Positions 6,389 through 29,863 of a stretch of DNA of 64,000 bases are shown piece after piece (the stretch's first letter is position 1; every line of letters begins with the position of its first letter). Position numbers and translations under genes: made by a program. This stretch comes from Cenococcum geophilum (Eukaryota). Where the stretch lies: NCBI GenBank assembly GCA_050273025.1, contig CP158635.1, forward strand, positions 19,840,001 through 19,904,000. The letters are read 5' to 3'. Below the pieces are notes generated by a model, which saw nothing but the letters and a program-made list of their open reading frames with translations, did no database searches and was not told where the DNA came from.

Positions 6389-8371
6389 TGTTAGCGACTT
6401 AGTCAATTGAGGCACGAATATAGTAAGAAGGACGTATGCAAACCTATACAATTGGATTGTCTATAAACGAGGACCTAAAGCTAGAGAAAGGAGAGGGACG
6501 GAACCGCCGCTTAAAGTTTTATAAGATCCTCTAGTTACGTAACCACAATCTACCGTACTCTACTAGCTTTCTGCCGTATTCTGCCATATTCTACTAGTAC
6601 TGTAATATTACCCCCCCCCTCCTCCGAAAAAGCCTGCCCTTAGGCTTTATATATCCGTATTATACCTATAGGGCATTCTTATCTTTATGCTCTATAGGTA
6701 ACCTATTATCCTTACTATACTAGCATTCTATCTACTTATCTAAGTACTTTAGCGGTCTAGGTTCGTTAGGGTAACGGCTATAGAACTCTTATAACTTATA
6801 GGGACTACCTATAAAATTCTATATAGGGTACTAGGTAGGATCCAGGTCATATCCTTTCTAACTTATACGGTACTTTAGTATTCCCCTTATAAGTTTATAG
6901 GCTAGTATTTCTTTAATTTCCTATTTATTATCGCTGTTAACTTAAATTAGTAGGGGCGGTTTATTCTTTTATCTAGGTAATAGGTTATTTATAGCTTTCT
7001 ATAACTTATCTGGTAAGAAGATAGGGTAGACCTTAATTAAATCCGGGAGCTTTACTTTATATAAGTTGCCTCTCTTCTTAAGGACCTTATATGGTCCTAC
7101 TATCTAATAGTCTAGCTTATAGCTAGGCCGTTCTATCTTCTAGTTCTTTATTATAACCTAAACCTTATCACCTATAGTAAAGTTAGGCTTACGTCTATAT
7201 TTATTTGCCTACTATTCTATTAATTTCTAGGCCTTTTCTAGGTTTATATAGGCTACTTTCTAGACTTCTTTTAAGTGTTTATTATAATACCGTACTTCCT
7301 TATAAGATAGTTTTTCGCATATAGTCTATAGCCCTTCTAGTCTTTTCTAGTTAAAGCTTATCTAGGATAAATACTCTATTTCTAGCTAAATAGATACAAA
7401 ACCTATAGAGTTATGGGGTAGGGTAGCCTAGGCGTAGTCTATTAGAGGTAGTAGTTCGGCCTAATTATCCTAAAAATAGTTAATAAAGGGTTAGAGTCTC
7501 TAGTCTAAATACTAGTTTATAATCTCTATCTAACTATCTATTTAGGGGTAGTATACTATAGAAAGCTTTAGCTTAATACCTAGGATCCGGGTAAACTTGT
7601 TCTAGAAAGCTAATATAAACTATAGCCTATAGTTAAATACGATAGTATCTAGTAATCTATAAATTTAGTAGACGTAGTAGATATATAGTTAGGCCGCCTC
7701 TTTAGTATTAATATTCTTATAATAAGGGATTAAAAACAGGCTCTTACTAAAGCGGTTAACTATAACTATAGTTATATTATATCCGTTACGGTCTATAGAT
7801 AGCTTATGGAAGTCTATAGAGATATACTATTAGGGGCACTCTAGTATTAGGAGTAGTTTTAATAGTCCTAGGGTCTTATCTCGTGGAATTATAGACCTAT
7901 AGTAGTCGTTATAGTTTTATACGTAGCAATTAATATCTATAACTATTCTAGGCCAGTAGTAATAGTTGCCAATAATCTTACGGGTCTTATTTTTTCTAGG
8001 GTAGGCCATAAAGATCTAAGTATACGCTTTAGTAATAAGTTAAGTTTATAAGTTCTATTCCTTAGCTACTACTAGCCGTTCCTTATACTTTAGTAGTCTA
8101 TTTTTAAGGGACCATAAGCTAGTAACGCCCTTACCTTTTTATAGTACTCCTATAATAAAGGGACTATATAATTTACTTGCAGTATTTTATTAATAAGGTT
8201 AAGTTCTATAGTATTAGCAAGGCATATCTCGGCCTTTGTAGGGTCTATATTTAGTTCTACCTATATTTAGGGGTTAAGGTACTTTAGTTATAATAGTATC
8301 TAGGTCTATAATATAATCTTTACGGCTATCTTGTTATCTATATCCTATTTAGGCATTATAAGAGTATCTAT
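6389..8371 (-). mobile_element. 3' part of a chromodomain Ty3/Gypsy retrotransposon (integrase, chromodomain, PPT, 3' LTR 6389-~6607), truncated at 8371
   Basis: LTR TG...TGTAATA is followed by a poly-C tract (PPT on the minus strand). Relics of the integrase (HP.TDGQ.E and GPY motifs) and chromodomain (Y.VSWKGYD.D.TW.P) are readable. Confidence 0.85.
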
Positions 8372-8399
8372 ACGTTAGGGAAAAAATTTACTAGCATTT

Positions 8400-9150
8400 T
8401 ATTTTACTTTTTTGCCATTTTAGCATTTTCTAGCATTTCTAGCATTTTCTAGCATTTAGTAGTCAAATGCGGCATCTAAAACCAAGTACTAGCACTTAGC
8501 CGCTAAATGCGACATCTATAACTAAGTACTAGCGCTTAGCTGCTAAATATGGCATTTATAACTAAGTACTAGCATTTAGCTGCTAAATACGGCATTTATA
8601 ATTAAGTCTTAGTATTTAGCTACTAAGTGCTAACTATAAGATTATTAAGCATATATAAAAGTATAAATTTTAAATTTTATATATACTTTATTAATATTAG
8701 TAAGTATATATAAAAGTATAAAAGTATAAATTTATATATACTTTATTAATATTAGTAAGCATATATAAAAGTATAATTTTATAATTTTAATAATTTCAAT
8801 AAAATTTATATTTTATATATACTTTGTTAATAAATATTAAAGTTACTACCCCTATAAAAATCTCGCTAAGGCTCTATATTACGAAAAAATTTACTAGTAT
8901 CTTAAGTTAGGTTTATGCCAATCTAGTAATTTTAGCATTTAGCCGCATTTAGTTGCATTTTACGGCTATATGCTATACCACCAATAATAATGCTGCAATT
9001 TGCGGCTAAACGCTGCCTTAATAATAATAGTACTGTAAGCTGCAGCTTGTTATAGTACAAGCCGCTTATTACAGTACGAGCCGCTTATTATAGTACAAGC
9101 CGACTATTACGGTATGAGCTGACTATTATAGTACGAGCTAACTGTTAAGG
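8400..9150. repeat. Subterminal tandem repeat arrays: ~10-bp TAGCATTTTC units, 4 x 40-bp unit (8465-8624), AT-rich ~55-60-bp duplications, ~5 x 20-bp unit (9045-9150)
   Basis: The 40-bp unit AAATGCGGCATCTAAAACCAAGTACTAGCACTTAGCCGCT and the 20-bp unit TTATAGTACAAGCCGCTTA are visible directly. Confidence 0.9.
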
Positions 9151-9517
9151 TACGAGGTAAAAGTATATAATTAATATCGCGTAAAGATCTATATAGGAGG
9201 TAAGGTAGTATATATACGCGTCGCTTAGGGGTTAGGTCCGTGCTTATACATACGTATACGCTTATAAGCTAAATTATAACAACGCGTATTAATCCCGTAA
9301 TATAGCTTAATGCTCTCTTAGAAATAATACTAGAAATATTTTAGTTGACTAAGTTTACTATATACGCTATACTATTACTTATAAGTTACTAGAAGACATA
9401 TCCCTTGGCCCGCGTATACGCCACTATATAATTGTAACAGGTTTTGCTATATAGTAACTATATATAGTATTCGGAACTATCTATAGTTATATTATACTCT
9501 TATAATTATTACCAGCA

Positions 9518-12500
9518 TTAGATAGTCTTAGTGTCTTCCTTTTTACCTTAGCCTGCTTTTAAGCTTAAATTAGTTTTCTCCTTATATACCGACTTCTGCA
9601 GTAATAACGTAAATTTAGTTAACTTTAACATCCTCTACTTAATACTTAACTTCCGATTGGCTATAATAGTACTATAGTAGACGAGCTTAGTTTATCCTCG
9701 TTGATCTATCTAAGTAAATAGTTACTTTACCTCCAAGAGCTTATAGCTTAGCTTAACCATAATAGTGTAATTTACGCGCTATAGGTTAATAGATAGCCTA
9801 ATTAATACGAAGGTACAAAGTAGGATCTACTTAGAGTTATTAGTATTAAAGGTTTGCCTAGCCTCGGCCTTCTTAATATTAAATATACCGGCTATATATT
9901 AGAGCACCTTATCTTTACTATATTTTTTATATAGCCTATTAAACTAATAAGCCAGTATAAGAGGTAAGTAAGTAGTAATAATAATCTTATATAGTAAACC
10001 ATCTGTCCGTTTTTAATATAAATATAATTATAGATTTTTTTTTGCTTTAAAGAACTTTATATTCTATTAAAAATAGCGGTTAAGCATATTAGTAAACTCC
10101 TTACTAAGCGGGTTAGTAGTCTACTTAGCGACAATTAGGTCCTTAAGTGTACAACTCTAAGTTTTTAGGTATTTATTATCGGACTTAATTATAATAGGGG
10201 CTTACTAGTCCTAGTATTAGATAACCTAGGCTACGCTTACTATCGTTTTCGCGTTAGTATATAACTTGGCTTAGGTAAGTTATAGTATCTTAGGTTTAGT
10301 ATTTAGATTACTACTATCTTCCTCCTATATAGCTAGAAGTTCCTTATATTAGAGCCTCTACTCTATCCTTACTTAGCCCTCTATAGCTATAATTATAGCC
10401 GCCTTAGTATTATTAGAGTTAGCCTATAATATAACTAATTTAAAATAGCTGTTCTTTAGGATAAGCTTTTACTAGTTAAACTAGAGTATTAACTCCCCTC
10501 TATATATCTAAAATATTAGAATAACTATGCGGAAAAATATAGCTAGTTCGTCGAATTTCCTATCCGTTACTACTTTAGCTAGGTTAGTCTTCGTATCCTT
10601 ATAAAGATAGTTAAATTCCTTCTTCTTTAGCTAGATGTTTTCTTCTTTAAGCTTAAGCAGTACTTTAAACTCCGTTCCCTTTAGCTTATCTACTTCCTAC
10701 TTAGGCCTCTTTAATCCTGCTATAATAAACTATATTAGTTATATTAGGTTCCCGTTATTAGGCGTGCTAGATACACCCTATATAGTAGGGCTATAATTAT
10801 ACGTAATGCGGTACTCCTTAACTATATCCTAAATAAACAATATTAAGACCCTACCGGTCGCGTCTAGGTGGCATTTATCCTAAAGGATATACCTAACCTA
10901 TATTGCACTATTTAATACCTAATACGATCTAGGGGTTTAGCTAGTTAGGTATTTCTATATACTAGTTTATATAGTAATAAACTCGCGTATTAGTTGTATA
11001 GTAATATAATTTTGTGTAGTAATTAGAAGGAATTAGGTTAAGTGTTTTAGTGCTAATAGTTCCGTTATATTAGGGGTAGGGCGATAATTATTCTTAAACC
11101 TGGCTTTACCCTATAGGTATAATAGTAAAGTCTTACTAACTAAATATATATTATTGTTATTCTCCTATTATTTCTTATTAGTCTACTTAAGAGCCTTATA
11201 GATTTATAGCTATTCGTTCTTTTTTAGTTTACTAAATATTTTAACTTTATTATAGCTAGGGGCGAGAATTATAATCCGGGGCGGGTTAGGGCGCTTTATA
11301 ATTACGCTATCTCGTAATATTATACTTACGTCCTTTAGGAATCCTAGTAGGCCCAGGTTTAGCGTAAGGATAACTAAGTAGCCTCGCTATAGGTCTATAG
11401 GGTATAGCTTCTTAGAGTTATCTTCGCAGTAGTATATAATTAGCTGCTTTACTGCCTATAGGCATTTTATATCTAGTAGATACATCTTAGATAGATAGTA
11501 AGTTACGTCCCTAATAGCTTAGGCCTTTTAAATATCTATTACGTTCTAATAATAACAGTAGTTTATTAGCTATTAAGTAATTATTTATATAGTCTTGCCC
11601 GCGCTAGGTTCGTCTATATAGATACCGCCTCCTTTAATTATCCTCTCTTACTTAAATACCTAAGCTATATATACTAGTTAGTATAGGCTAAATTTAAAGC
11701 CTAATGCGAGGCCCTAATTAGGGAGTTCGATTAGGGCGGTCTTAGAGAGTACTTTTAATAAGACGAGTAGGAAATACTTTAGAGTAAGTAGAAGATCCGC
11801 CTCCGTTACGTACGCTAGTGCGCTATCTAGGTTATCCTTCCCGGCCTTATAGAGCTAGGCTAGGAAATTTTACTAATTAAGTTCTTCCTCTACGTCTATA
11901 TCTTAGTTATAATTATTAACTAAATCCTTGTCTTAGTCGCTATTATTAACTAAATCCTTATCTTTATCTCTACTCTCTACGTCTTTAGAGTTAGTATAAT
12001 ATAGGAACTGATTATTATATCCACCGGCATATTACGGTAATTTACTATCCTCTGCGGTAATATCTTAAGGGGTATTAACGGTTAGTAATGCGGTAGTAGG
12101 GTCGCCTATTATATCGTTAGGCTAGTATATACCTATAGGTTCGGTAATAGATTACAGCGATTTACCGTTATCTACGGCAATTTCTCTAGTACTACTATTA
12201 CTTATTAATATAGGCTTATAGGTAGATAGGTTATATCTTCCCTTCGCTAATTACCTTCTACGCATAACCGGCTTACTATTACTATTTTCTATAAGGGTGC
12301 CTACTACTAATTCTAGTTAAGGGCGCTTCCTACGTCTATTTAGGTTAGCCTTATAACTATTTAACTTCCTAGGCACGGCTAGCTTACTTTCATTATCCTC
12401 CGCTAGGGCACTTATTACTAATCTTAGTTAAGGCCACTTATTATATCTACCTAATTTAGTCTTACTATTATCTAATTTCTTATATCTAATAGGCTCGCCC

Positions 12501-13660
12501 TTACTATCTTCCTTAGAGCTATATACTACTAATCCTAAATAACTCCGCTTCTTACCTTCTCCTAGTTTACTCTTACCGCTAGCCTTATATAACGTTAGGA
12601 CTTACTAGCTATCTTTTACGCTACGTCTATCGCGTCTAGGCGTCTTAGATTTAATAGCTAGCAGTATATTATTACTAGTAGCAACTTAGGAGTTTAAGCT
12701 AGGAGGCGAGAATAAAGCTACAAGTACGGCCTCCTTTATACTATTTTTTGCTATTTCGCTAAGAGCTATAATAAGTATACCCTCCGACCATATTATAAGG
12801 TTTTTATATCTCTACGGTAATATATAGATATTCTTTTTAGGCGGACCGTTAATATTAAGCTCTATATAGGCTTATAGTTCCTCCTATAGCTTACCTAGAG
12901 CTATATATAGGTTTCCGCTTATTAGATATAAGACTTAGACTACCCTAACTATTAACTTACCCGTTAAGCCTATAGATTGGATTTTAATCTTAATATCTCC
13001 TATATTAATTATATTACTTACCGCTAGGGTTACTAGCTAAGGCGAAGGGATACTAGGTAGTAGGTTTATAGTAACGTCTATAGGCTATATTACATATAGT
13101 AGCTAAGGTAGCATCGTCTTATCTTATACTTTAGTCTTTTAGGGTAACGTATATTTATATAGAGGTAGGTTTTTTAATATATTAGAGGTACTTAGTACTC
13201 TCCTTACGCGATTAGAATAAGCACTTCCTACAATTTTTGGGATTACCCATAGTTTCTAATCCGGTAGAGTATTAGTAAATTATAGAAGTTACTTATAAAA
13301 CCCCTTAACGTATCCTTCTTTTATTATTATAGAGTTATCGCAATATATTACGTGCTTAGGCTTAACTTTAATCGCAACATCTTTAACCCTCTCTTTTAGT
13401 CTATTATAGTTTTTAATAGTTATTCCAAAGCCTTAGGTAATATCTACATCTTTAGTTAGCTTTAGGTTCGCCTTATACCACGTATCTAGCTTTACCTATA
13501 GTTACGTTATTATTAAGTCGCTTATTTAGTTAGGTACGTATAATATTACGGTATATATATTAAGTAGAAGGTAACTATTAAAGTAGGACGGCTTTATACG
13601 GTAGCTAACTAGCGATATACTAGTATAACTCTAATATTAGACGTAGTTAGAGGTTAGTTA
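9518..13660 (-). pseudogene. SNF2/SF2-family helicase-like ATPase, RIP-inactivated; long N-terminal region of unknown type
   Basis: Motif I GGIYxDEPGAGKT (11592-11633), motif II D(E)CH (10868-10879), motif III WGVSGTP (~10760-10785), motifs V/VI SINLQRANYTIMVEP...RVDxRGQ (~9690-9800), probable stop at 9518. Many TAA/TAG stops are RIP-derived. The start is approximate. Confidence 0.8.
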
Positions 13661-13982
13661 TTAAAGAGATAAAAGGTAGAGTAAGTAAGGTAAATAAAGG
13701 AGAGGTAAAGCGGTAGATCTTATAATTACCTATACGTACCCGTATAGAGGTAAAATTAGCTATTATTTACTACTACTAGTTAGGGTAAATATAGCTAGAC
13801 TTAGTGCTATATAGTTAAATAAGGGTATAATTATATAACTTATAAGGACTACCCTACCTAGCCTATTTAGGGCTAGGTAGCGGTTTAGTACTACTAAACT
13901 CTTATAGTTTTTAATATAAGTAATTTATTAAGTGCCTATAGAGGGGTAACTAGTTATTATAGTATAGTAGAATACGGAAGGT

Positions 13983-14308
13983 TATAGGCGTTACTATATT
14001 TCTTATTATTAATAAAGTTAGTATATATACGCGCCGCTAGAGTTAGAGGGCTAGCCTACGTTTATGCGTACGAGCTCTATTACTGCGAAGTATTTACTAT
14101 ATAATAGGTAGTATTTCCAGTAGACGGTAACGTATTATACTTATTATAGGCGTTACTATATTTCTTATTATTATATAAAGTTAGTAGATATACACGCTAC
14201 TAGAGTTAGAGGGCTAGCCTATATCTATATATATAGACTCTATTACTATAAAGTGCTTAGTATATAATAGGGAGTACATCTAGTAGATGGTAACGTATTA
14301 TACTTATT
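13983..14308. repeat. Tandem duplication of ~162 bp in the spacer between the two helicase genes
   Basis: TATAGGCGTTACTATATTTCTTATTATT...GGTAACGTATTATACTTAT occurs twice, head to tail. Confidence 0.9.
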
Positions 14309-15429
14309 TTATAATTACTAGTATTATTATTATACTACTAGGTAGTACTTAAGGGCCTATAAGGTAAGTCTATCCGGAATAATAATTATCTAGTATATAG
14401 GATGCTTCTATATCCGTACCTAAATATCTAGTACTTATTTAAACGTATATCTACTATAAAAGGTAGTAGGAGGTTTTATATCTTATATTATAAGTTTATA
14501 TAATTAATAGTATTTTATAGTATTTTATAGCATATTAGGGCATATTAGGGTATTTTAGGATAGTAGATATATTATATATACCTAGCATCTAGCCGCTTAG
14601 CAATATTAACTTATCTTACTATTTATCTATTTAGTATTATATAAGAGGTTAGTATTCTACTATAGTATTTACTGCGTTAGAGTCTCTTATATTTAATATC
14701 TCTATTTTAGATCTATTTAAAATTATATATAGTTTTATAATATCCCGCTCCCTACCTAGTACTCTAGTAAGAGATTATTTAGCTAATAATACCTTTTCTC
14801 TTACTAATTAAGGGAGGAAAAGGCTTATACTTTCTAGCAGTAGTAGGCTATACTTATTAGTAATATTTTTAATAGATTATAGTATTTAAGTTTTCGTTTA
14901 CCTATAACGTAATTAGTCTACCTATAGTAAAGTACTTTTACTTTACTACTTACTTCTCTTTTCCCTTACCCTTCTATATATTTATATACTTATATTATAA
15001 ACTATAAGAGCTTAATAGTACTAGACTATCGCCTAGCCTATATTAAGAGATAGGCTAGATAGGGTAGTCCCCGTAACTTATACTATACTACATCTTCCTC
15101 TATAGGTTAGTCTTATTACTATAGATTTACCTTTATACGCGTTTAACCTATAGAGTATATAACCGTATATATTGCCGCCAAGGCCTTATATATATAATTT
15201 TATTAGGGCGTGCCTTATTTCCTTATCTTTACTAGTTAACCTAACTCTACTAACTACCCTCCCTTACTCCTACCCTACTAGTATCTACCTCTATAACTAG
15301 TGCCTTTATAGATCTATCTAGGCTATAGAGCCTTATAATATAGTAAGTTAGCTGCCTTATCTTTAACCTTAGCTATATAATAGAGAATCTATATTTACTA
15401 ATATATTTATATAAACTACCGCTTAATAT

Positions 15430-18400
15430 AACCTGCCACTAAAATAGACCTACCCACTAATTATTTTATAACTCGCGATATTAACTATATCTATAACCAC
15501 AAAAAGTTTACTAAGGGCGTTATAATTTTAAGATTGCCTTAACTATAGTGGCTATAGGCTCTAGTATCTCGCAAGGCAATGATAAGGGCCCTATACTTAA
15601 TAAGCCTCTTCTTCTAGAGCTTAGTAGTCTATACCTCTTAGCTAATAACACTTTAAAATACTATCTCTATCTATCTACCGGCTATATATGCGCTAATTAT
15701 CCTCTTAAGAAAGCTTCTTAACTTTATTGCGGCTATAGTAAGGCCGGTTATCTTAAAGCCAACTGCCTTAACCCTATATATAATAATTATAGGGAAGCCA
15801 GTTATCTTAAGAGTAACTATCCTTATATAACGTGTAACTAATATAGTACTATAGGTCATAGAAAGCGAGACTATCCCTAGCTATTAGATAAGAAGAAGCG
15901 GACTTACCTAAACTATAACTCCCTAGACTATTAAACTATCTTCTATAGTTAGGTATATAAAAACTACGGAGTTATGGGGTATAATATTAATAATTATATA
16001 AGTAGGCCTACTTTAATTTAGGCGATAAACGCTGTAACCGCTCTAGGCAAGGTAGATGTACTAGGTACTACCGCTTTAAGTATAGCTACTACCTCTCTGT
16101 CGCCTAAACCCCTTAATATAGTCGGCTTCTATCTAGTAGTAGATAGCCTAGTAGATAATCTAGACACCTACATAGAGGATAGCAATTCTATAATGGCCGA
16201 ACCTTTAAATGCACTCTAGCTTCTAAGTAATAACTACCTTATAGTTTAGTTTATTACGCAAATTATTAAAGAGTATATTATAGTATATAGTATTATATTC
16301 TAGGTATTTTATAAGGCTAGTAGAATACCTACTTACCGTTTATATAAGATAGCGTCTATCTAATTTACGGATGCTAATATCGCTAGCAACGTTAAGGTTA
16401 GTACTATTAATGCTACTTCTCTAGTTACTTAACAACTATTATATCTAACCACGCTTAAGTATCTTACTTACATTCTCCCGCAAGATGCTATAACCCTATA
16501 ACTTTACTATATTAGGTTTATTGCCGCCTTTAATAAACTCGTACTAGGTACGCGCACGCTGCTTAGTAAGTACTTCTTTATTAATAGGGACTTCGGCCTA
16601 TTTACGCTACAAATCTATAAAGCCTAGGATATGCTATTAAATAATTCTACGGTTATTATCCACTTCTTTATACTAGGCACTAAATAGCTTAATAGTTATA
16701 TCGTGAGCCTAAACGCGAGCCTATAATAGTAGAGCGTTAATAATCCTTTAGGTTGCTAGTAGAAGAACTATAATATAAATGTCTAGCCTAGTATATAGCT
16801 CTTAGTAGAGGACTAACCATCGTACAAAATCCCCGCGAGGTATTAGTTTAATAGTATTCTTAAGTATTTTGCGGTCTAGTTCTATACCGCAGTTATAAGC
16901 CTTAAGGTTGTTAACTAGAACCCCTAGGTACCTACTATTATTTATCTTATTACCTTCCTAGGTAGCGCAAACTAAGTCTACTACGCTGCCATCCAAATAG
17001 TTAATAGTCTTACCCTTCGCACTAACTCTATTATTAATATTTTATTTCTAGGTAAAGACGTAGATAGTTAGGCTAGCTAGAAAGGAGTTATTATTAATAC
17101 TACTCCCTTTAGCTCCGGCTATAACTACTATACTTTTATCTTTTAACTATAGGTAGGTTATAAGTTTATACTAAATCCTATATTTACTCTAGAGCATATC
17201 CTAAGCAGCGATAACTTTATAATAGTTAATAACCTAAGTAAGGCCCTAATTACGGTATAGGGTATTAAATATCTTATAACTAAGCGTATCCCTAAGGTTA
17301 GAATCTCCCAAGAGATTAATACTCTACGCCACCTATAGTAAGGAGGCGATAGTTTCTATATTAAGCGCTAAATTACGCTATCTAATAACTTTATAGATCT
17401 CTCGCGTATTAATTACTTTAACTATAATATTGCTAAGTAGAGGAAGAACTTGGTTAATAATGCCCTTAAGGCCGTCTTACCGCTACTTAATAAAGAGTAA
17501 ATAGGTGCCTATACTACGCTTAAATATATAATAATAATAATAATAATAATTCATTGCTTAACGTCCGATTCGGATCCCTATTGGGCCCACGCAGACTACT
17601 CCTTATATACATATGGGGAGAAAACTCTATTTGAGAAAACCCCGTAATCTATCTCCCCGCCTTTTAGGACTCGCCTATAGGGCGCCTGCGAGGCGCCTGC
17701 GAGTCACCTGTGGTGCTCCTACTACCTTACTTTTTAACCTCCTTAGGAACCACTGCTGCCGTAATAAGCCTACGGACGCGCTAGTATCGCAAACTTTACT
17801 CTACTGCTATAGAGTTATTAGGGGGCACCCGTTACTCACCCCCCTACCTTTTATTACTATTTCCTTTATAACCCGGAACTGGTTTAGTATATTTTAGCTA
17901 ATAAGCCACTAGGTAACCGCCTTAAGGCCTTTTTATATTAAGAGCAGTGTCTTATAGTTCTCTATACTAGCTACTAAGAGCATTACTTCTTGGTTAGTAT
18001 ATAAGGGGCATAGCAGTATTACGTGCTTTAGTGTCTATCTTAGCCAGCTATATTTGCATCTTAGGCTACCTACTAGGACACCCACCTAGTAGAGCCAGTC
18101 TTTTAGTCCTATTACTCCTGTTCTTAAGAGTATTACTATTATATTTTCTACCTTTGTTAGGCCTTTTTAGAGCCCTAGAGTATTTACCCCCTATAGCGTT
18201 AACTATACTACAGCTTAGGTTCTTTTTGCCTTAGTTAACCTCTATACCTTTAACTCCCATATACCTTTCTAGCGTTGGTCCAGCTAGTATTATATTACGG
18301 TAGTTAGTTTCCCGGCGTTCTTTTATACTTTACTTTAGCTCTTTTCTCTCTCTTATTGTTGTCCTTACTAGCCTCTTACGCGTTTTTCTTTCTCCTCTAT

Positions 18401-20848
18401 ATAGGCCTGGGCCCTAAAGCAGCACCATTCTTCTTCTGCTTTCTTTACCTGTTTCTCTAATATATCTTCCCTACTTTAGGGTTATTGGTTTGTTCTCCTA
18501 TAAGGCGCCCTAAGGTCCCTCTATAGTTTATTTAGGCGTGTCTTAATATACTTTATAACATTAAAGTTGCGTTCCTTTTGCGCCCTTTATATTGCAGCGG
18601 CTTCAATATATAGTTATAGGGGGGGAATATTAGCTTCCTTCTTAAGCAGTGCTGTGGCCGTTCGCTTATATCCGCCTATTATACTCTAAAGGCAGGCTAT
18701 TTAGACCTTTTAGAGTGGTTTAAGGAGCGATTTGGGGGGGCCTTTCTCAGATTCTCCAATGGCCTAAATACTGGACCTATACGTCATGGTTGGCCGGACA
18801 ACTGCTGTGTATAGTAGGCGTAACCTCTAGAAGCATAGGCCCTATATAGAACGCTTAAATATATAATAGGCGGTATTTTACTAATCTAAGGCCCTAGTAA
18901 TATTAGGAAATTAACCTTTCTAACTATTTTAGTATAATACTAGTATTAACTTAGGTTACCCTAATAGGATCCTACTAGAATCTAGGTCTTATTACCGCTT
19001 AATTACCAACTATATATACTAGCTAAGACAATTAATAATATACTTATAGAGGACTACGAGGCACTAATTACGTAAGGCCGTCTCGCTAAATTTCCTATTA
19101 TCCTTCGCCGTTATATACGCTTAATGGAAACTAAGGTCTATATACGGGATGCCGTTATATAGTAAATAGCGATAGGTATTAATACTCGTCTTAAGTATTT
19201 TAAGAAATAGGATAACTATGCTATAATTAACAAGGACGCATCTATACTAAATATAGCATTCCTGCTCTACCGTACGTTTAAGGCTAGTAATACCACCAGC
19301 TTTAATAAGCGGTTATAGGTTATAGATTTATCTAAAGGTTAGTAGCTGTTACACCTTATAGGTGTCCTAGATAGTAACGGAAACCTATATTCTATTATAG
19401 ACCCTAATATAACTAAATACGTTAAATTCCGCCAATACTTGTATTAATTTATACTTAATAATAATATAACGTAAGATAATAAGATGGGAATAACACTTGC
19501 GGCTAATATAGTTATTATAGACCTGGCTAAGAAGGCTAATATTATTCTTATAATACCTAATATAGTCTTGCAGACCTATATATATTCTATTAGCGCTATA
19601 TATATAGTTTTCTATAATAAGGCTAAAAAGGCGTCTAAGCTAGGTAGTCTTACTAGATTTACCTAAAGTAGACTATATTTAATCTAGAGAGGTCTATAAA
19701 TCTAGACTAGTAACCCTATACCTTAGGTTCTCCTTAGTAATATATACTAACTAAAACTAATCCTTAATCCCAATTTTAATAATCTATTCTACTATTAAAA
19801 ATCTATCTCCCTTTATACGCGTCTCCTTGCGGCTAGTATAGATATAGTATAGTTCTTACTGTAATATTAATTTGTTAAAGATATTATATATCTCGTAAAT
19901 GCTGTTTTACCGCACGGCTAGCTTTAGATAAGCCTAATAGTTAAGGACCAAGAGTAGTTAAAGCTGGCGGCGAGCTTTTTTAAAGATGTGCTGCGCTATA
20001 ACCACCCTATCGCGTTTCTTACCATTAATAGTACTATATAGGTAAATAAGTTTAGCTAATTAATGTATAACCTAGTCTACGCTTAACGCGTATTCTAGGT
20101 AGCTATAGCGCTAATAGACTTTAGATTTAAGCTATTAGAGGTTAGCCTTACCGTTTTGTATATAGCTTAACTTGCCATCTACTCTATGGCGCTATATACG
20201 CTTAAAGAATAGTACTACGCCTAGTAAGATGGTAGTAAGTAGCGGGAATTTACGCCAGTAGTTAGCGAGATTAAGGTCTTTACTGTTAACGGTATCTAAG
20301 GCGGCTAGGTAGAGTTATTAGTATATAATATAATAGTTGCCGGTCCGCTAAAATTTGTCTAGGATATAGCAAGGAACCTTTTTATAATTACTAGACTATA
20401 AGCGGGCCTTATTATTGTTAGTAGTCCCTAGGTAGTCTATAATTATTATACTAGTAATAAGACCTTTATAAATACCACGTACTATAAAATTAAGAAGTAG
20501 TATAAGGATAATAAGGTATTTATTAACCTTAAGAATCCTAAGTTGAAAGAGAACTTCTAGCAACTTATCGCCCTATTTAACGTTAATAAAACTATATAGT
20601 ATATCTACCGCTAGCGTATAGCCGATTATACGCCCATTTCGTATAGTATAGACGTTAACTTTAATATTGCTATCCCTAACTTCGCGGGTATAATAAATAT
20701 TAGCGGTACTAGTAATTATACCGAAGCGTAGAACGAGGCCGATAGAGAGGGCGCTAATAATAACGGCTAGGACGGTACCGGTAATAATAGTAAGAATAAT
20801 AATAATAGAGAGGATATTAGTGGTGTTAGAATATAAGGAGAGTAGTAA
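15430..20848 (+). pseudogene. CCHC zinc-knuckle array + UPF1/DNA2/NAM7-like superfamily-1 helicase, RIP-inactivated and interrupted by a LINE
   Basis: De-RIPed 15660-16000 gives CxxCGEAGHLKANC, CNNCGEAGHLESDC, CDQCGTVGHGKRDC and CENCGVMGHNIDNC. The frame is continuous across the LINE: LNKEQ..AY...LIQGP..(T)GKST (18881-18916). Then come FYDEAEKASE (~19610), VLLGDTHQL (~19730), SLYARL...QHRF (~19810-19875), TVDGIQGGQ (~20282) and MITRPQAGLIIVGS (~20385-20425), followed by an acidic Gly/Asn tail. Confidence 0.8.
17534..18850 (-). mobile_element. 5'-truncated Tad1-like LINE with (ATT)n tail and ~18-bp TSD
   Basis: TSD ACGCTTAAATATATAATA at 17516-17533 and 18851-18868. A (TAA)n run lies at the left end. 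ORF2 C-terminal relics include LYTAVVRPTMTY and CxCG...TLKHVILLCP. A near-identical copy starts at 61858. Confidence 0.9.
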
Positions 20849-21439
20849 GAACGGATATTATAGACTTTATTAGTAGTAAGACCCTTAAATAGGGACACTA
20901 GATAGAAGTTAAGAGCGGCAGTAGCTATAGGCCTTTAGTATTTATAATTTTGCTATAGTATTAGATAAAATACGGTATATTATAATATTATATATTATAG
21001 CTAAATAGAATAGACTTTCAATAATTATAATCTCTAAAATAGATAAGCGTATTATAATAAAGACGGCTTAATTTATAAAGTCTAGTAACCCTAATTTATA
21101 TCCCTTATAGGCTAGCGGTTAATTAATACTAATCTATAATCTAGATTTTAAGTACTTAACTAGTTAGATTATAGTCTAGATATCTCGCTAATAACTATAA
21201 CTAGTTAGCTAGCTACGAGCTTTAGCCTTTATAGCTAACTAACTGCGTTAAGTAGATTGCTCGCTGTTCGCTAACTATTAGGCTATTAGCTAGCTGTTCT
21301 AATTAGGTAAGTAGTATAGCTAGCGGAGCCTTTAGTAGAGCCTCTAACCTAGTTTTAGCGCGTACCATATTTAACTAAGGGTTTACTAATCTATAATAAT
21401 TCTAGCTTAAAGCTAGACTCTATAATTAATTTCCCTAGC

Positions 21440-21710
21440 TACTAAAGCTTTACTAGGGGCTTAGTATAGAGCTCTACTAAAGGTTCTACTAGGAGCTCTA
21501 CTAGAGAGGCTCTATAAAGCTCCCTTAAAGCTCTATATAAAGCTCTACTAAGACTTTATATAGAGCTCTATAGAAACTCTATATAGAGCTCTATGGAAAC
21601 TCTATATAGAGCTCTATGGAAACTCTATATAGAGCTCTATTGAAGTTCTATACGGAGCTCTACTAAAGCTCTATACTAAAGCTCTATATAGAGCTCTACT
21701 AAAAGCTTTA
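21440..21710. repeat. Degenerate tandem array of ~11/22-bp AGCTCTATATAG / AAACTCTATATAGAGCTCTATGG units
   Basis: Directly visible. Three near-perfect 22-bp copies lie at about 21575-21640. Confidence 0.85.
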
Positions 21711-22028
21711 ACTTACCACTAAATCTTACTACTAAGGGAGAGCAGTAAGAGAAAAGATACTAGAATAGTAGAAAAATAACTGGCAGTAGAATAAGAATAA
21801 AGGAAAATACTATACTAGGATCTATAAGGGGAGCCATTCCTTTTCTCTTAAAGCCCCTAAGGATAAATATCCTAAAAGGCTATAATTGGCTTTCTTCTAG
21901 CTAAAGCTAGGAAAAGGCTATTTTAAATCCTTTACTAAAGTAATAGGAGAGGATAAAGAAAGTAGATGCTTTAGGGAATGTAGAGCATTACAAACCCCTA
22001 GGTACCTACTACTAGACTGTAACCTATA

Positions 22029-23546
22029 TGTTACGGAAGTAGGCACGAGCTGGAATACAATGTACTAAACAGAGTAGTAATTAAAGAAGGCTACGTACGC
22101 GTAACTATGCGTGGTTAATACAAAGACATTTGGATAAAGAAGAAGATTCTTCGTGTACCAGGTTGGGTATAAATAGGGGTTGTAGGGGAACGTGCGTAGG
22201 TGTCTCGGGACGAATATAAGCACGGGTTAAGAACGTCAAAACGCGCAGGGACGTGAGAGCGTGTGAGTCCCGTAACAGTACCCCCCCCTTACTTCCGAGC
22301 TCCTGCGAGGTGTGTCGTGTCATATATACCAGAAAAAAACCCAATACGGGAAAAAAAAAAAATTTTATTAGCCTTCTCCGCCCTTCTACGTCCTCCGTTG
22401 CACAGGCTCCTCCAGTTCAGTCCTTCTATGTTTAATCGTTAGGCCACTGACTTGTCAGGCCTAAAGCATAGCCCAGCTTCCGTCGCCAGCTATACTCCTG
22501 TTCTCGCCGCTTGGAGACGTATTGCTGAAGCTTATATAGTCCCTTTCTCGCTTCTAGCAGCTCTACGGCCTTCCCTTCTTATACTCCAGGTCCCCCTAAA
22601 AAATTACCCCAATTTTTGGTCCAAAATGGGCGTTTTAGGCAGTATTTATCGGCCTAAACGGTAGTATAGTACGGTGTTCGTGGTCGTGGCAAGGCATATT
22701 CTTAGCAGGTTCTTGTTGATGCGGTGCAGTATTCATATCGTAGGCAGGTTCTTATCGGTAGCAGTACGGTGCTAGCGTTAGGTTCGGGTTCCGTAGGTAT
22801 ATCGGCACGGGATCTTATCAGATTTGGGTAGCAGTACGGTACTAGCAACGTGTTCGGGTTAGGTTGTAGGCTTATCGGCACAACGGGTTATTGGGTTTGT
22901 TTCGCAGGCATAGCGGCGCAAGGTCTTGTTGGTACGTAGGGCAGTGCGTGTAGGTCGGTAGGACAGTAGTAAGATACCAGCTTCCGTGTTCGTGTTCGTG
23001 TTCGTGTAGCAGTAGGATGCGAGCCATTAGGTCAAACTGAGGGGCAGTAACGTGCCTGTTCGTAAGCGGTAGCAGTAGGGTGTAAGCCATCGAGGTCGCA
23101 GGCGTATTGGCGCGGTGTTTTATTATCAGGTCCGTATGCAAATTGGCGCGGAGACTTGTCGTACCAGTTTAGAACCCCAGCGTCCTAGTCTACCCGCAGC
23201 CAGTAGCTCCTGTATCTACCCCGTAGGCGTAGAAAGGCATACTCCGCGACTAGTAGCCCACAGGCCCGCTAGGTATAGAAAAGGGATCCAAATGTAGTGT
23301 TACGGAAGTGGGTATAAGCTGGAATACAATATACTAAACAGGGTAGTAATTAAAGAAGGCTACGTACGCGTAACTATGCGTGGTTGATACAAAGATATTT
23401 GGATAAAGAAGAAGATTCTTCGTGTGCCAGGTTGGGTATAAATAGGGGTTGTAGGGGAACGTGCGTAGGTGTCTCGGGACGAACGTGAGCACGGGTCAAG
23501 AACGTTAAAACGCGCAGGGACGTGAGAGCGTGTGAGTCCCGTGACA
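22029..23546 (-). mobile_element. Non-autonomous LTR retroelement (TRIM-like), 1518 bp
   Basis: Two 249-bp LTRs (22029-22277 and 23298-23546), both TG...CA. 5-bp TSD CTATA on both sides. Poly-C tract (minus-strand PPT) at 22281-22288. The 1020-bp internal region has no RT or integrase motifs. Confidence 0.92.
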
Positions 23547-24009
23547 CTATATAGGGAAGAAAGAAGAGAAATGTAGAAGAAACTAGGCTCTTCTCTCTCT
23601 CTAAAGAAGCTATTTTGCATACAAAAAGGAAGAGAGGCGCTTTTTCTATTTCTAAGTAGGACAGAGATAGCTATTAGAAAGTGGCTAATAACAGCAGGAT
23701 CTATAGGAGGTAACTCCTACTAGGCTCCTAGTAAAGAGATATTAGTAAGTAAAAGGTCAGAAATAAATTACAAAAGGTCAGGGATAGGCGTTAGGACTTC
23801 TTATTTCTTATAGTTTTCTACCGTTTTCTTATTCCCTAGTAGTTGCTTATAACTTAGTATTTTACTAAGGAACTATAAACCCCTAGCTTAGGGGCTTATA
23901 AACTACTAGGACATAGTTACTAGTACATGTTAAGCTGCCCTAAGGGATTTATATATATAGGACTATAGCGCCATAGCCTAGAGGCTGCATGCGTAGTATT
24001 GTACGTAGT

Positions 24010-25234
24010 ATAATACAATGGATATATATAAAATAAAAATAAAAAGAGTACTTTTTAAAAATTATTAGTAAGATTCAGCCTTAAATCTATTTTACTAAAT
24101 TAATTAATAGCATTTTTAAAGCTGTAGGTCTTTTACTTTTTAATCCTAAATACGTATTAAGGTGCTATACTAAGTAGATTTCATTTAATTAACTATTTAT
24201 ACCACTTTTAGATATATAAGTAACGCTTTTATTCTCACCTTTATATCTTTATATACCTTAAACCTATACTAATTTAGCTTAATACGCCTATACAATTCTT
24301 TACCTTAAAACTATACCTAAGGCGGCTGAGATTATTAAAAAAGAATACAAAGTTAATAGAGGTTAAAGCTACTAACTTTTACAATTCTACTGTAAAGAGG
24401 AATAAAAGGAAGTAAAAGAAGTAAATTATACTTTTTTTATAAATTAATACTTACTACTAAGACAATAAGGGCAGTTATTGCTACTAAAGAGATTACTAAA
24501 AAGCTTAAAAAAGGCACTAAAATTGTACAAGAGTAAACTTTAAAAAAACTGCTAAGCTACTATTATAATTATTGAAGAGCAAATTAAAGTTAAAAAGAAG
24601 ATTTATATTATTATTATAAAGCTTAAGAAGGCTGCTAATTAATACTAAAGGGAGGCTAATAAGGCTAAAAAGGTAGTAAAGAAAGTATAGAAGGCCTTTT
24701 AGACTGCATCCAGTATATATAAAAGAAGCCTACTAAGGATGTTTTATAAGTAGTAATTTAGGTAGTTAAAGGTATAATATTTATATAAGTTACTACTAAA
24801 TAGCTTTAAGAATAAGCTAAGGTGTTACTTAATACTATCTATACTGCTTTAGCATACTATAAAAAACTTATTATAGCTTTAAAGAGGATTAAGGAGGCAG
24901 CTGCTTAACTAGACAAGCTACTTAATAAGGAGGATAATAAGGAAGATAGTACCTTAAGTAATAAAAAGGCCTTAAATATAGATTTTAATCTACCAACTTA
25001 TAGTTATATAAGCCTTTTAAGCAATTAGCTGCCTAATATATTATTAAAAGTCAATATAAACTCTCTCCTATATATATTTAAGGCTTCATTTGAGTTTAAT
25101 AATAAAATAATGCTTTGCGATGGTTTTTGCTAGCAATTTACCTACAAATGGGCATTCGGCAGTATTTTAGTGTTCCAAAGACGGTTAGATTTCCCTCATA
25201 ACCTGGTGGACCGTCATAACCAGGTGACCCACAT
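24010..25234 (+). mobile_element. 3' half of a pogo/Fot1-like (Tc1-mariner) DNA transposon, RIPed
   Basis: De-RIPed translation K.AFLEIISKIRPQIYS.KSI.S.FEAAGL.PFDPEHVL resembles the DDE_1 C-terminus and is followed by a Lys/Glu-rich tail. The terminal segment TCATAACCTGGTGGACCGTCATAACCAGGTGACCCACAT, with an internal direct repeat, is followed by TA. Confidence 0.65.
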
Positions 25235-25715
25235 TATGCCATTCGCGAAATATCCCGCCACTTGTCGAGCGGAGTAGCCAGGCAGTGGCAATGTTAGCGG
25301 GGAGGCGATGGTTGCCAAGCGCGACGACTGGTCAGATGCTAGTGGCGGCTACTCATCCGAAAATTGGTTCATAGCAATTCACACACATCTTGACCCCTTT
25401 GTGGTTGTACTTGTGATGATCGTTTGCTAGCCCCCGGGGGGGGGAGTGGAAGAAAGACGATTAAGAGAGTTATTCTCGAATGAAGATAGTACTTTTGAAG
25501 AATAGAAAGTATATAGTTGACATGGGTACATGCTGATAAATTAGCAAATTTATGCAAATTCACAACTTGCGCGCGTGCTATATAGTGACTCTAAAACATA
25601 ATTCCTGCCAGAAAGGTTCCGGCGGTCTTCGAAATATCTTAATCTTCACGAAACGACATCCGGAAAACATTCCGACGGAACCCTTGCTGCTTGGTATGGG
25701 CTTAACTTCCGGATT

Positions 25716-28700
25716 TAGTGATGGAAATGGATTAGAGTGGTGTGGATTAAGGCTCAAATCCACTCTATCTAGCAAATAGCTGGTGGAGCTCCAGGAGCTC
25801 CAGCATGTGACTATACTATTAATAGTATATACATATAAGTCTTGGCAACCTTTTAGTGTTAAGGAATCTAGGTGCAAATCTCACTAATTTAACGCCCTTA
25901 ATCCTTATCGTCATCCTTACCGCTATCCTCACTAGCTTCCTCCACCTTACTAGTAATATCGTCGCCTTCTAGATTAGCCAGTTGCTCTGCTAAAGGTCTG
26001 CCCCCAGCAGCACTTACTTAACGGTCCGCCTCAGCCTCCGCCTTATCACCTTCCTTATCGTAAGTAGCCAGCTTCTTTAAAACCTCCGCGACCGCGGCTT
26101 TGTATTTATTAAATGATGCTATCTATATAGTCCCCTCCTCAGCCTCTACCTCCGCCACGTCCTTATTATCAAACGTCCGTTTTGGCGGCGGCCCGTACAA
26201 GTAGCGAAGACTCTTATTTACTTCAATTATATCTATCTAAAGCCGCGAGCGGCGGTCCTTAAGTAGTATCTTAGCGCTGCTAAACAGCCGTTCGCACTTA
26301 TCCGATATAGGTAGTATAGTGAGGATATTAAGGGCGAAGCGGGCAAGAGTAGGCTGGCTTAAATAGCGGTCGTTCTAGTATTTAATAATATTAAATTCGT
26401 TAAGCTTATACTTAGTAAGCTGTAGAGGATTTATCTTAATATAGTCCTTATAGTAATTAATCGCCAAAGGTATAGAGGAGTTGTCCAATATATAAGCTGT
26501 CTTAAGGCGTTTATAAGCTTTAGCAGAAGTAAATATCTTGCATATTTAATTGCGAGCTCGTTATAGTATTTAGCTTCTTATTAAGAAGGGGGACGACTTA
26601 TTAGATACTTACTTGCCTTTATATTTACCCTAAAGCTCCTTAACTATATCTACTACCCTCTAAATCTAATCCTTCTTTACTAGGTAGTCTCCCCACTTAT
26701 TATTAAACCACTATAGCTTTAAAGTCGGATTAAGAACTATTACTGCATAGTACGCAGCCGTCTCATCTACCTTCAAATAGTACTTCTCGCACTTTATCTA
26801 CGCAGCCTCCGCGTAGCCAGCTAAATATTTATAGTTCTTTACATTAAGTAAACAATGCTTTGTTTTCGCAAGCTCTAGAAACCTCTACTTAGTATCTTAA
26901 AGCTAGAGTAAAAGCTAATCTAATATAGTAAAGTGGTCGCCAATATTCGTCTAGTTGCCTTCTACTATAATAGTAGCCTTATAGAAGGTTTTAAGGTAGT
27001 TATAAAGATAGCCAAGCTCTTGCCAGTAGCGCTCTTGCAAAATATTATCCTTAGTAAGAGGCTTTAAGCTAGGTAAGGGCGTATAGGTATAGTAGAACTC
27101 CTATACACGTTCGCGGCAGTTTAGGAAGCGGCCAATTGCTATAAATAGCGAATTCTATTATGTTGCGTTGTTTTAGATAAGCTATTAAATTTATTAGTAT
27201 CGCGACCGTAGAAAAAGGATTATTATAATCCCACCTCCGCAGCCAATTAGATAAGGTGGCGAATATTACATACTTGTAGTCTATTAAATTTGGCCAATAA
27301 ACCCCCCATCTTAATCCTTTTAAAGAAGTTACGGCGCTAAGGGGTTATACAAATATACTAAACGAGGTTGTGAAGCAAACTAATAGCCCCCTACTTGCGC
27401 CAGAGCTTTCTAATCTTCCTTATATCACCCTCCCGGTAGGCAGCATTAAGCTCCTTACAACCCTTTTTAGCGTCCTTCCCTATAATAAAGGATTAAGTAT
27501 AGAGGTTAGTAATATAGCCAAAACAACGTAGCCGACGAGCCTTTTATTACTTTACTAATATATTTTTATAAAGGGTTCGAAGAATAAGGTCAATACACTT
27601 ATCGTTTATACTATTATTGTCCGCTATAAAATATCCAATATTACCCTAGATACCGTACTCCCTAAATAGGACAATTAGGGCCGCTGCTATATTCTCACCG
27701 CTATACTTACTAGGAACCTTATAAAGCCCTAAAACAACCTGCCGTTACCTACCCTACTTATTAATAAAGTGGGCTAAAATACTAAGGACCGCGTAGGAGT
27801 TCGGTAACGTCTATAAGTCGAAGGATATTAATACCGCGCTATAAACCTAGGAGAGCTCTAAATTCAAGGCCTTCCTATGAGCATTATATGCTTTAATTAC
27901 CCACTTTCTAATTATATAAGCTACCCGCGGTAAGAGCTTATTAAGCCCCAAATATAGAAAGCATAATAGCTAGCGGAAGTAGGCGTTTTTAAATTGGAAA
28001 AAGGCGACGTAGTAGTAGACAATCCAGCGTACGAGCAACGCCTTAAAGCCAGTAAACGTTTTTATCCTATTAAGAGAGGCCTGTTTAGGATACTCCTCAA
28101 TTATTAGCTGTCCCGAATTAGACGGCTTTAGTAGAAGAAGCTCGCCTATTATCTTATCTATATAATAATCCTTAGCAAGGTATTCTAGGGTAGTTAATCT
28201 TCTAGATAAAACAACCATAAGCTCCTACTAACGCTTCTGTCTCTTATATAGGTAGCAGTAGTAATACTACTTAGATTAATCGCCGCCCTTTTCTATAATA
28301 TCCTCGCCCCATTTCCATATTGGCGATATATACTGCTTTATATATAGTACTGGCTTTATTAAAGTTCCACACTAAATATACACCTTACTGTTTAGCCGGA
28401 ACTCCTCTATATCCTTTGCAGAATTAACAGTGTTTAGATTAATTGACTTTAGGGTAAGGATAATATTGTTAGAGGCAGAAGATACGCGTAGAGGGAAGAG
28501 GTGCTGCTATACCTGGGGTATGGCGAATAACACTAAGGAAGAGGTAGTAATAGTAAGGTAGGTAGCGAGGACGAGCTTTAAGGAGGGCGCCAGATATAGG
28601 CAAGCAGCGGTAAGGGCTAGACGATGGACATAAGTCAAATATTAGGTGGCTGAGACTATAATTTTCAGACGCCCTACCATAAGGAGTACCACTAATTGGC

Positions 28701-28950: not shown

Positions 28951-29863
28951 TCACATATTTTTGATTTGCTTCTGGCGCCCCTCGAATTTCTTAACATGTG
29001 TAAAGACGACAGGATACACCAAAAAATCCATAAGGGTCGCGCTCCAGATCATCAATGCGCCGCAGGGCGAATGAACGAAGCTATGGCCGTCTGGCCAGTC
29101 TCTGGGATAGTGCCATACGCGCATCTCGAGCAAGCAGACGACCGCAAATGTCCCCACCGCTCGGCACCACCTAGAAACCCGATACCTCATCAGAAAAGAT
29201 CTGTGAGACATGGCGTGGAATATATGTGAGAGAGCGGCTTACCAAATCCCCCAGGAGTGTCCCCTCGTACTACCCCTTGAGAGTAACTGTATAATACTCA
29301 TCAAAGATACGGACACTTGCAGAATAAAACCGGACCAGAAGGTCACATCGGTGATGCCCTGGAACTGGATCTTGAATGCCCACAGACCAACCAGGCTCAT
29401 TACGATAGATAGAGTAATAATAGTGACGAGATTCTCAGCAATGAGAGGACTGTTTTTCCACTCCCTTGGCCAAAACTTGATCGTCGCATAGACAAGGAAG
29501 AGATCCACAATAAAGGGAATTGTAGAGGCTATCCGGTCGAGGATTGTTGGAGATTTAATGATGTAAAGAAACTCCCATGAGACATTGCTGCAACTATACA
29601 ATTTTATTCATTTACAGATCAGTTATGGACATTTTGTAGACTGGGCTAACGAAGGATCCCACAATCAGGTGGCAGAGACCATTAACTCACAGCGAAATGA
29701 GAGGCATTCCATAAGACTTGTCACGGAAGGATTTCCGAATGTAGAGGACATATGCGATAGTCCAGAGAGCAGAACAGACAAGAAATAAAACCATCTGTAT
29801 CCAGAGGTACACCTCAGGTGGGCCATGTTCCATGTCGAAGGGAGTTCTCCATGGGAACTCCAT
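28951..29863 (-). CDS. Pyr4/PaxB-family integral-membrane terpene cyclase, intact, 247 aa; exons 29863-29691, 29593-29243, 29170-28951
   Basis: Spliced product MEFPWRTPFDMEHGPPEVYLWIQMVLFLVCSALWTIAYVLYIRKSFRDKSYGMPLISLCSNVSWEFLY...QLLSRGSTRGHSWGIWWCRAVGT...MDFLVYPVVFTHVKK. Canonical GT..AG introns of 97 and 72 nt. The 744-nt frame is open. Family hallmarks are present: YGMP..L..N..WE, RGSTRG.S..IW, a late Asp and multiple hydrophobic segments. No RIP bias. Confidence 0.93.

Follow-up and report, generated by a model that had tools for sequence, protein, structure and literature searches.

The DNA analysed here is a 64-kb stretch of Cenococcum geophilum contig CP158635.1 (positions 19,840,001 to 19,904,000; hereafter the window). 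Positions 8372 to about 21740 of the window are one copy, destroyed by repeat-induced point mutation (RIP), of a discrete repeat unit some 12 kb long. The copy spans 13.4 kb here, the excess being a 1.3-kb insert resembling a long interspersed nuclear element (LINE). The coding content of the unit consists of two long intronless genes placed head to head and facing outward, which encode a Snf2-family ATPase and a UPF1-like helicase of superfamily 1 (SF1) preceded by CCHC zinc knuckles; short-period tandem arrays lie on the outer sides of both. On balance we favour the view that this is an unclassified discrete multi-copy DNA unit which multiplies as a defined selfish or mobile segment.

The entire window is AT-rich (GC mostly 0.27–0.40), and the uniform heavy RIP described in an earlier note on this DNA is borne out over 9500–21472, where TpA/ApT is 1.77–1.86 and (CpA+TpG)/(ApC+GpT) is 0.11–0.28. 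There is no stop-free stretch of at least 80 amino acids in 8372–17500. In six frames of 7000–22001, with stops written as X, Pfam finds no helicase and a single weak SH3_Tf2-1 match; none of three sub-pieces of the read-through translation matches a helicase family at E≤10, phmmer with the SNF2 relic against PDB sequences returns a chance match only, and a scan of stop density does not single out the coding frames. Both genes are proven because intact relatives align with them, the RIPped read-through remaining unseen by Pfam and PDB sequence searches. When the two relics served as queries, word-based searches retrieved the intact proteins P0090 (1328 residues; minus-strand relic, 62% identity, full coverage) and P0077 (1355 residues; plus-strand relic, E 7e-236). 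In tblastn, the whole of P0090 (residues 1–1328) is colinear with 13510→9551 on the minus strand (1317 aligned codons, 63.3% identical), and P0077 aligns on the plus strand with 15444–15536, 15527–17551 and 18854–20818, split by the insert at 17535–18850. The alignment of both intact proteins upholds the head-to-head SNF2 and zinc-knuckle/UPF1-like helicase relics that the earlier note had read from the letters.

Could RIP have produced the differences between the window and these intact proteins? For each aligned residue we asked whether any of its codons could yield the window codon through C>T and G>A changes only. This holds for 96.3% of 1330 codons in the helicase gene (95.9% in its 5' part, 96.8% in its 3' part) and for 97.2% of 1317 codons in the SNF2-like gene, against controls of about 17% for residue shuffles (16.5% for the SNF2-like gene) and 60–64% for the opposite mutation direction. 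RIP-type changes likewise explain 172 of the 177 in-frame stops over both genes, namely 88 of 91 in the SNF2-like gene and 84 of 86 in the helicase gene (35 of 37 in the 5' part and all 49 in the 3' part). Judged by its codons, the window copy is a RIPped version of the intact genes. It has been inactivated by RIP (177 in-frame stops), one frameshift and the LINE insertion, and the host is a RIP-competent ascomycete. Among contigs of X1, one of the sequencing runs used below, 93% of differing places (2783 of 2979) are transitions. In practical terms, the RIPped genes were recovered solely through intact relatives together with the test of RIP-producible codons.

The SNF2-like gene occupies 9551..13510 on the minus strand. 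P0090 matches SNF2-rel_dom (27.2 bits, cut-off 24.9) and Helicase_C (27.3 bits, cut-off 23.5) in Pfam and carries GAGKT, DECH, SGTPD and RRGQ as motifs I, II, III and VI. A profile of six relatives matches 75 PDB sequences, with Rad5 as the best (E 1.9e-15). The AlphaFold model of the family member P0010, built from a 13-row alignment, has a core with pLDDT (predicted local distance difference test) of 80–94, and Foldseek places Chd1, SMARCAD1 and CSB at the top for this core (E ~1e-16). The motifs and profiles identify the product as a Snf2-family ATPase, a DNA translocase. Between motifs I and Ia, in lobe 1, the residues H471, C482, C492 and C494 (P0010 numbering) are invariant in alignments A1 and A2 and possibly form a zinc site; we know of no such insertion between these motifs in other Snf2 subfamilies. 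The linker ahead of the core is repeat-rich and disordered, with a 111-bp internal repeat at 12253–12581, and the ESM Atlas gave nothing usable for residues 1–300 of P0090.

Relatives of this gene are few. With the read-through of 9602–13201, phmmer finds 68 matches at E≤0.001 among 1.84 billion cluster representatives; they include full-length proteins of 936–1894 residues at 22–35% identity and many fragments of 39–148 residues at 49–88%, the latter taken to be open reading frame (ORF) pieces of other RIPped copies. In 11 long relatives Pfam recognizes Helicase_C (nine) and, weakly, SNF2-rel_dom (seven), and no other family in any. Those with names, each annotated as a hypothetical protein, belong to Lindgomyces, Kalmusia, two Plenodomus species and Mytilinidion, which are Dothideomycetes, and the two Plenodomus members are 27% identical over 729 columns. 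A family so sparse and fast-diverging does not look like an ordinary conserved host gene, and it is not the slowly evolving, syntenic kind that would have refuted the earlier note. As a separate observation, residues 519–617 of P0012, a distant SNF2-like relative, resemble the Ulp1 protease domain at E 0.1, below the Pfam cut-off; a PDB sequence search gave the match no support. Ulp1 domains are often carried on transposons.

The helicase gene extends from 15444 to 20845 on the plus strand, its end extrapolated from eight unaligned C-terminal residues. Its 5' part (15444..17534, P0077 residues 1 to ~698) encodes six CX2CX4HX4C knuckles, a nucleic-acid-binding module, and contains a one-base frameshift near 15525–15536; many other copies have an extra T behind 15525. 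The 3' part (18851..20845, residues 693–1355; 59.8% identical to P0077 over 18854–20818) holds the helicase core at 18854–20400, to the right of the LINE. Helicase motifs sought by eye in 16000–17300 were discarded with the location of this core, and a low-stop minus frame at 18900–20860, considered as a third gene, is its antisense. P0077 matches AAA_12 in Pfam at 71.6 bits (cut-off 27) and AAA_11 at 22.1 bits, below the cut-off; its Walker A (GPGGVGKS, residue 705) and motif II (DEAG, residue 947) are present, and its best PDB sequence matches are UPF1/NAM7 (E 6.7e-13). The product is a UPF1-like SF1 helicase. Between knuckles and core, a search for homologues of residues 230–690 recovered P0077 alone, the ESM Atlas gave leads all below 0.9 for the same residues (the accessory-domain types SMUBP-2 1B, DUF6469 and ZNFX1), and an AlphaFold model of residues 236–700 without an alignment is unusable (mean pLDDT 32.8).

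No intron interrupts either gene over its length of about 4 kb. They are separated by a divergent intergenic region (13511..15443), presumably a shared promoter, which contains a 163-bp sequence repeated twice in tandem at 13982–14308. The flank 3' of the SNF2-like gene (8372..9550) contains arrays at 8416–8457, 8449–8626, 8637–8789 and 9045–9156 with periods of 19–55 bp, and the flank 3' of the helicase gene (20846..21740) contains arrays at 21439–21710 with periods of 23, 37 and 69 (Tandem Repeats Finder). The tandem arrays near both ends in the earlier note correspond to 8416–8789 and 9045–9156 on the left and 21439–21710 on the right. Rfam and tRNA scans of the window found nothing.

That the unit is repeated and discrete is indicated by contigs of four sequencing runs (X1, X6, X12 and X3), at least 80% alike, aligned on 6500–26000. 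Twenty of 24 listed runs, from 11 studies, contain 30–45% of sampled words of 9000–17500, and these runs represent two organisms as well as root and soil metagenomes. In X1 the summed depth is 9,900–17,100 (about 13,000) in all 18 bins of 8453–21472 outside two LINE bins, which reach 480,000–648,000. It is 208,000–253,000 in the left flank of Gypsy sequence and 171,000 in the bin 23426–24076; beyond 24077 it falls to 460–1,100, and fully identical single-copy contigs at 24052–25774 have a depth of about 90–136. X6, X12 and X3 show proportions similar to X1, so that all four runs agree on a multi-copy segment, as the earlier note had supposed. At both flanks of the unit the depth differs more than 10-fold from that of the unit itself. 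The left step falls between the bins 7802–8452 and 8453–9103, and the left terminus lies somewhere within 8372–8800. On the right, depth shifts in the bin 21473–22123 and contigs of X12 cease matching at 21737 (nine reads), which sets the end near 21740; the end at 24000 proposed earlier has to be withdrawn, because both the depth and the sequence of the unit stop near 21740 and other repeats fill 21741–24076.

These depths suggest some 100 copy equivalents of the unit, mostly full-length and forming a family separate from both flanks, a rough figure because summed contig depth is not a copy number. Within the window, purine/pyrimidine BLAST at strict settings detects no second copy; the matches at loose settings were noise only. 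A joint 8850→21526 was considered as the signal of a solo site and rejected, its short side being 22 letters that fit the CTACTAAAGCTCTATA motif of the right-hand array. The left end had also been thought to recur at 31337. What recurs is a single 91-column piece, 9146–9234 matching 32469–32559 with 74 identities, 14 transitions and one transversion; the second site adjoins another tandem array, and the segment may be a small independent repeat.

Intact copies of the genes exist in public assemblies. The protein cluster of P0077 has 13 members and that of P0090 has 12, and full-length members are 93–97% identical to the representatives. Both clusters have members on contigs equal in size and source (20005 and 12438 bp in JGI/IMG, 11654 and 19995 bp in ENA), and the two genes thus appear to share contigs in intact copies. 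Two of these sizes, 11654 and 12438, approximate that of the unit, 13.4 kb minus the 1.3-kb insert. A scan of metagenome contigs yielded two loci from 32 pattern matches. Neither is the intact family, and the useful one, L001, is a distant relative. This locus is GC-rich and not RIPped, and it has an intact SNF2-like ORF of 1408 residues, whose best matching segment is 29% identical to P0007. Upstream, across a 1.6-kb spacer, an ORF running the opposite way opens with six CCHC knuckles like P0077. An AT-rich array with a 20-bp period lies 3' of the SNF2-like gene and reaches the contig end, and a 105-bp repeat occupies the same place in the linker as the 111-bp repeat of the window. An architecture common to a relative at 29% identity (over the best matching segment) speaks for an old lineage. 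No relatives were found in two scans of viral contigs (which leaves the earlier suggestion of a viral-derived relic without support) or in two of prokaryote genome contigs.

What kind of element could this be? We hypothesize that the unit multiplies as a defined DNA segment and that the two ATPases are its own genes rather than captured cargo. By analogy with the helicases of Helitrons, KolobokH and AcademH, they might supply strand separation and chromatin access, while the breaking and joining of DNA would either reside within residues 236–700 of the helicase protein or be supplied in trans. A unit of about 12 kb and about 100 copies, with two motor ATPases as its only genes, falls outside every transposon superfamily tested. 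If it is self-moving, it would represent a new mobility mechanism, or at least a new self-encoded accessory module, and would account for part of the “unclassified” repeat fraction in large RIP-shaped fungal genomes. Its mobility is directly testable because intact copies exist.

Several observations weigh against this view. Terminal repeats were not detected, the RIP-tolerant end-to-end alignment scoring 80 for inverted and 67 for direct repeats where shuffles average 83 and reach 106; short inverted repeats would escape this alignment. Long direct repeats bounding 8372–21740, of the long terminal repeat (LTR) or large retrotransposon derivative (LARD) kind, are absent from nucleotide and purine/pyrimidine self-comparisons; the same self-comparison detects four further pairs of repeats in the window at 97.5–100%. 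The window offers neither a clean insertion site nor a target-site duplication for the unit, and the original context of this copy is destroyed because both flanks are other repeats. The linkage of the genes in intact copies is inferred from equal contig sizes rather than directly seen, and the copy figure carries the limit of summed depth given above.

The proteins bear on the same side. In P0077 and P0090, searches of Pfam, NCBIfam and PADLOC reveal no nuclease, recombinase or reverse transcriptase, no transposase, Rep or tyrosine-recombinase domain (in Pfam even at E≤5), and no DDE family, residues 236–700 of P0077 being left unfolded. NCBIfam and PADLOC yield generic helicase-lobe matches only, far below their cut-offs. 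Helitron_like_N and PIF1 do not match either protein even at E≤5, Pfam finds no ubiquitin-conjugating domain in them, and no HxH motif is seen by eye in residues 236–700 of P0077. The earlier note had reported no PIF1, HUH, RecQ or tyrosine-recombinase motifs; the two intact proteins agree with it in all of these and show no DDE domain either. It had also pointed to the unassigned region 11700–13660 as a possible seat of a recombinase or nuclease. The AlphaFold model of P0010, with Foldseek of its core, gives a small domain and a disordered, repeat-bearing linker instead: ahead of the ATPase core are about 95 residues folded with moderate confidence and about 210 disordered ones, so that the N-terminus is predicted to leave room for only a domain of some 95 residues.

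A stronger version of the favoured reading is that the unit is an autonomous member of an undescribed eukaryotic mobile class, defined by a divergent Snf2 and CCHC/UPF1-like pair between short-period subterminal arrays. Their movement would need no enzyme of the DDE, HUH, tyrosine-recombinase or reverse-transcriptase type, catalysis being located in the 465-residue region of the helicase protein or borrowed from host repair, and they would constitute an old lineage with a patchy distribution in Dothideomycetes. We regard this version as doubtful. The data establish neither a transposon nor the new transposon class that the earlier note had put forward as a possibility: the analysis found no termini and no target-site duplication, nor did it find an empty site or a nuclease with catalytic function.

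Alternatively, the helicase pair might have come from the host and been amplified, either through capture by another transposon (transduplication) or through segmental duplication within the repeat compartment, before being RIPped, the genes themselves being passive. The lack of a transposase in the proteins of the unit fits this explanation, and there are precedents. X3X3R8 of the Dothideomycete Parastagonospora nodorum is a 26-kb repeat with three helicase genes, Rad5/SNF2-like ones among them (SNOG_09186 and SNOG_01370 are helicase genes of this repeat), besides two genes of unknown kind and one for a Rad6-like ubiquitin-conjugating enzyme; its authors read it as an amplified endogenous gene cluster (PMC3017866; Hane & Oliver 2010), an interpretation that also tells against a self-multiplying unit. 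Amplification mediated by transposable elements is also reported for a housekeeping gene in fungi and, in a wheat pathogen, for a DNA methyltransferase gene (PMC6710886). Passive amplification is, however, difficult to reconcile with the even depth over the whole 12 kb and the sharp steps at both of its ends, with the recurrence of the gene pair, the six knuckles and the outer array in L001 at 29% SNF2-like identity (best matching segment), and with the sparse, fast-diverging nature of the family, and the termini of a carrier were not seen. We consider amplified cargo rather unlikely, with a chance that still deserves to be taken seriously.

The unit might also be a helicase repeat comparable to yeast Y' or the fungal telomere-linked helicase (TLH) blocks, spread by homologous recombination among chromosome ends and repeat-rich regions, a very improbable explanation even though fungal chromosome ends are well known to bear repeats that encode helicases (RecQ families, PMC4522978; PMC3017866). 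Telomere repeats of the TTAGGG type are absent from the 64-kb window, RIP-tolerant patterns included; neither protein is a RecQ helicase, the rest of the window not having been searched for RecQ relics by a RIP-tolerant method. The roughly 100 copy equivalents far outnumber the chromosome ends that could plausibly be present, and a tandem junction, leading from the right end back to the left end, does not occur among the joints listed (15 of 205). Least probable of all is that the unit is part of a larger known element, such as a Starship or another giant element, whose mobilizing gene lies outside this copy or was lost from it: repeats on both flanks have destroyed the original context and the 20005- and 19995-bp contigs hold more than the two genes, but at either end of the 12 kb the depth changes more than 10-fold, down or up, contigs as short as 11654 and 12438 bp contain both genes, and Starships occur in low copy number and measure tens to hundreds of kb. 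The tyrosine-recombinase captain of Starships (DUF3435), expected at one end, is not found in the two proteins of the unit, Pfam being blind to RIPped genes, so that a relic outside them is possible.

The sequences around and within the unit belong to other repeats. To its left, 7017..8371 (minus strand) is a 5'-truncated Gypsy-type pol of which just the integrase region is left; its family is far more abundant than the unit. An abrupt start inside a Gypsy pol had been noted before; the integrase left of about 8372 stands, with HHCC and DDE-core motifs read by eye in P0006, and its database support amounts to one match below the cut-off (SH3_Tf2-1 at ~7017–7172, E 9e-5, 23 bits versus 30). This remnant is the integrase-bearing 3' part, and the missing 5' part is not on the right side of the unit. 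On the right, 21741..24076 is an abundant repeat (21741–22029 and 23589–24076) split by an element resembling a terminal-repeat retrotransposon in miniature (TRIM); the repeat was examined as an LTR partner of the left Gypsy and dismissed, its similarity not exceeding that of shuffles. Both the TRIM (22030–23588) and the LINE (17535–18850) inserts of the earlier note are present. Terminal direct repeats of 250 bp, which are 100% identical in purine/pyrimidine coding, bound the TRIM-like element, and its body is comparatively rich in GC (0.44–0.48); its empty-site joint 22029→23589 is found in contigs of X1, X6 and X3. The LINE-like insert (17535..18850, minus strand as inferred from a (TAA)n-like end at 17535) is a 5'-truncated non-LTR element flanked by a target-site duplication of 18–19 bp (17516–17534 and 18851–18869), later than the unit and from a very abundant family. 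A second copy at 61866–63205 is 88% identical to it in nucleotides and 97.5% in purine/pyrimidine coding. The summed depth of this family is about 40–50 times that of the helicase unit, and it is one of the most abundant in the runs.

Elsewhere in the window, the LTR pair 32872–33064/39023–39215 is 100% identical when transitions are ignored and 94% in nucleotides, and the pair 49756–50185/57286–57715 (third copy at 60199–60392) is 99.8% and 92% identical, respectively; the two LTRs of one element have thus diverged essentially by RIP-type changes alone. The segment 24077–31000 is less RIP-marked (composite RIP index 0.6) and of near single-copy depth; it has a single ORF of at least 120 residues (29239–29601, minus strand), and no gene was identified in it.

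How does the unit compare with known systems? None of the full-text literature searched describes a repeat that carries this gene pair. Starships resemble it in being fungal and in being large mobile elements with cargo genes; the unit differs in the absence of a tyrosine-recombinase domain from its two proteins, in its length of about 12 kb and in its approximately 100 copy equivalents, set against the low copy number and great length of Starships. The yeast Y' and fungal TLH (RecQ) repeats likewise have a helicase as their main gene and no transposase; they are, however, RecQ-type or Y'-Help1 and bound to telomeres, whereas the unit carries other helicase families, has no telomere repeats in the window and attains a far higher copy number. 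Helitrons share with the unit the character of a helicase-bearing repeat without obvious inverted repeats, as well as the succession of a zinc-binding N-terminus, a middle region and a C-terminal helicase. Both helicases belong to the SF1B group and stand in the same domain order. Helitrons end in 5'-TC and 3'-CTRR with a 3' hairpin and insert between A and T without duplicating the target site, signatures whose C and G letters RIP would rewrite in this copy. In Helitrons an HUH Rep is coupled to a Pif1-like helicase, whereas the helicase of the unit is UPF1-like, accompanied by a second, Snf2-family gene and by neither Helitron_like_N nor PIF1. KolobokH and AcademH are fungal DNA transposons with an accessory helicase (PMC9587614; 10.1101/2023.10.20.563377), KolobokH having a DDD/E transposase with a RecQ helicase downstream (PMC9587614); the unit differs from them in its Snf2-family and UPF1-like helicases, and a DDE domain was not found in its proteins. 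The closest published case found, as far as the accessible part of its description goes, is X3X3R8, which is likewise from a Dothideomycete, multi-copy and RIP-affected, with Rad5/SNF2-like helicases, gene models in some copies and no transposase reported there. Compared by published description only, the unit is distinguished from this 26-kb repeat by its length of about 12 kb and by having exactly two genes, one of them CCHC/UPF1-like. Should the unit prove to be amplified cargo, it would be a clean second case, after X3X3R8, of helicase clusters multiplying in Dothideomycetes.

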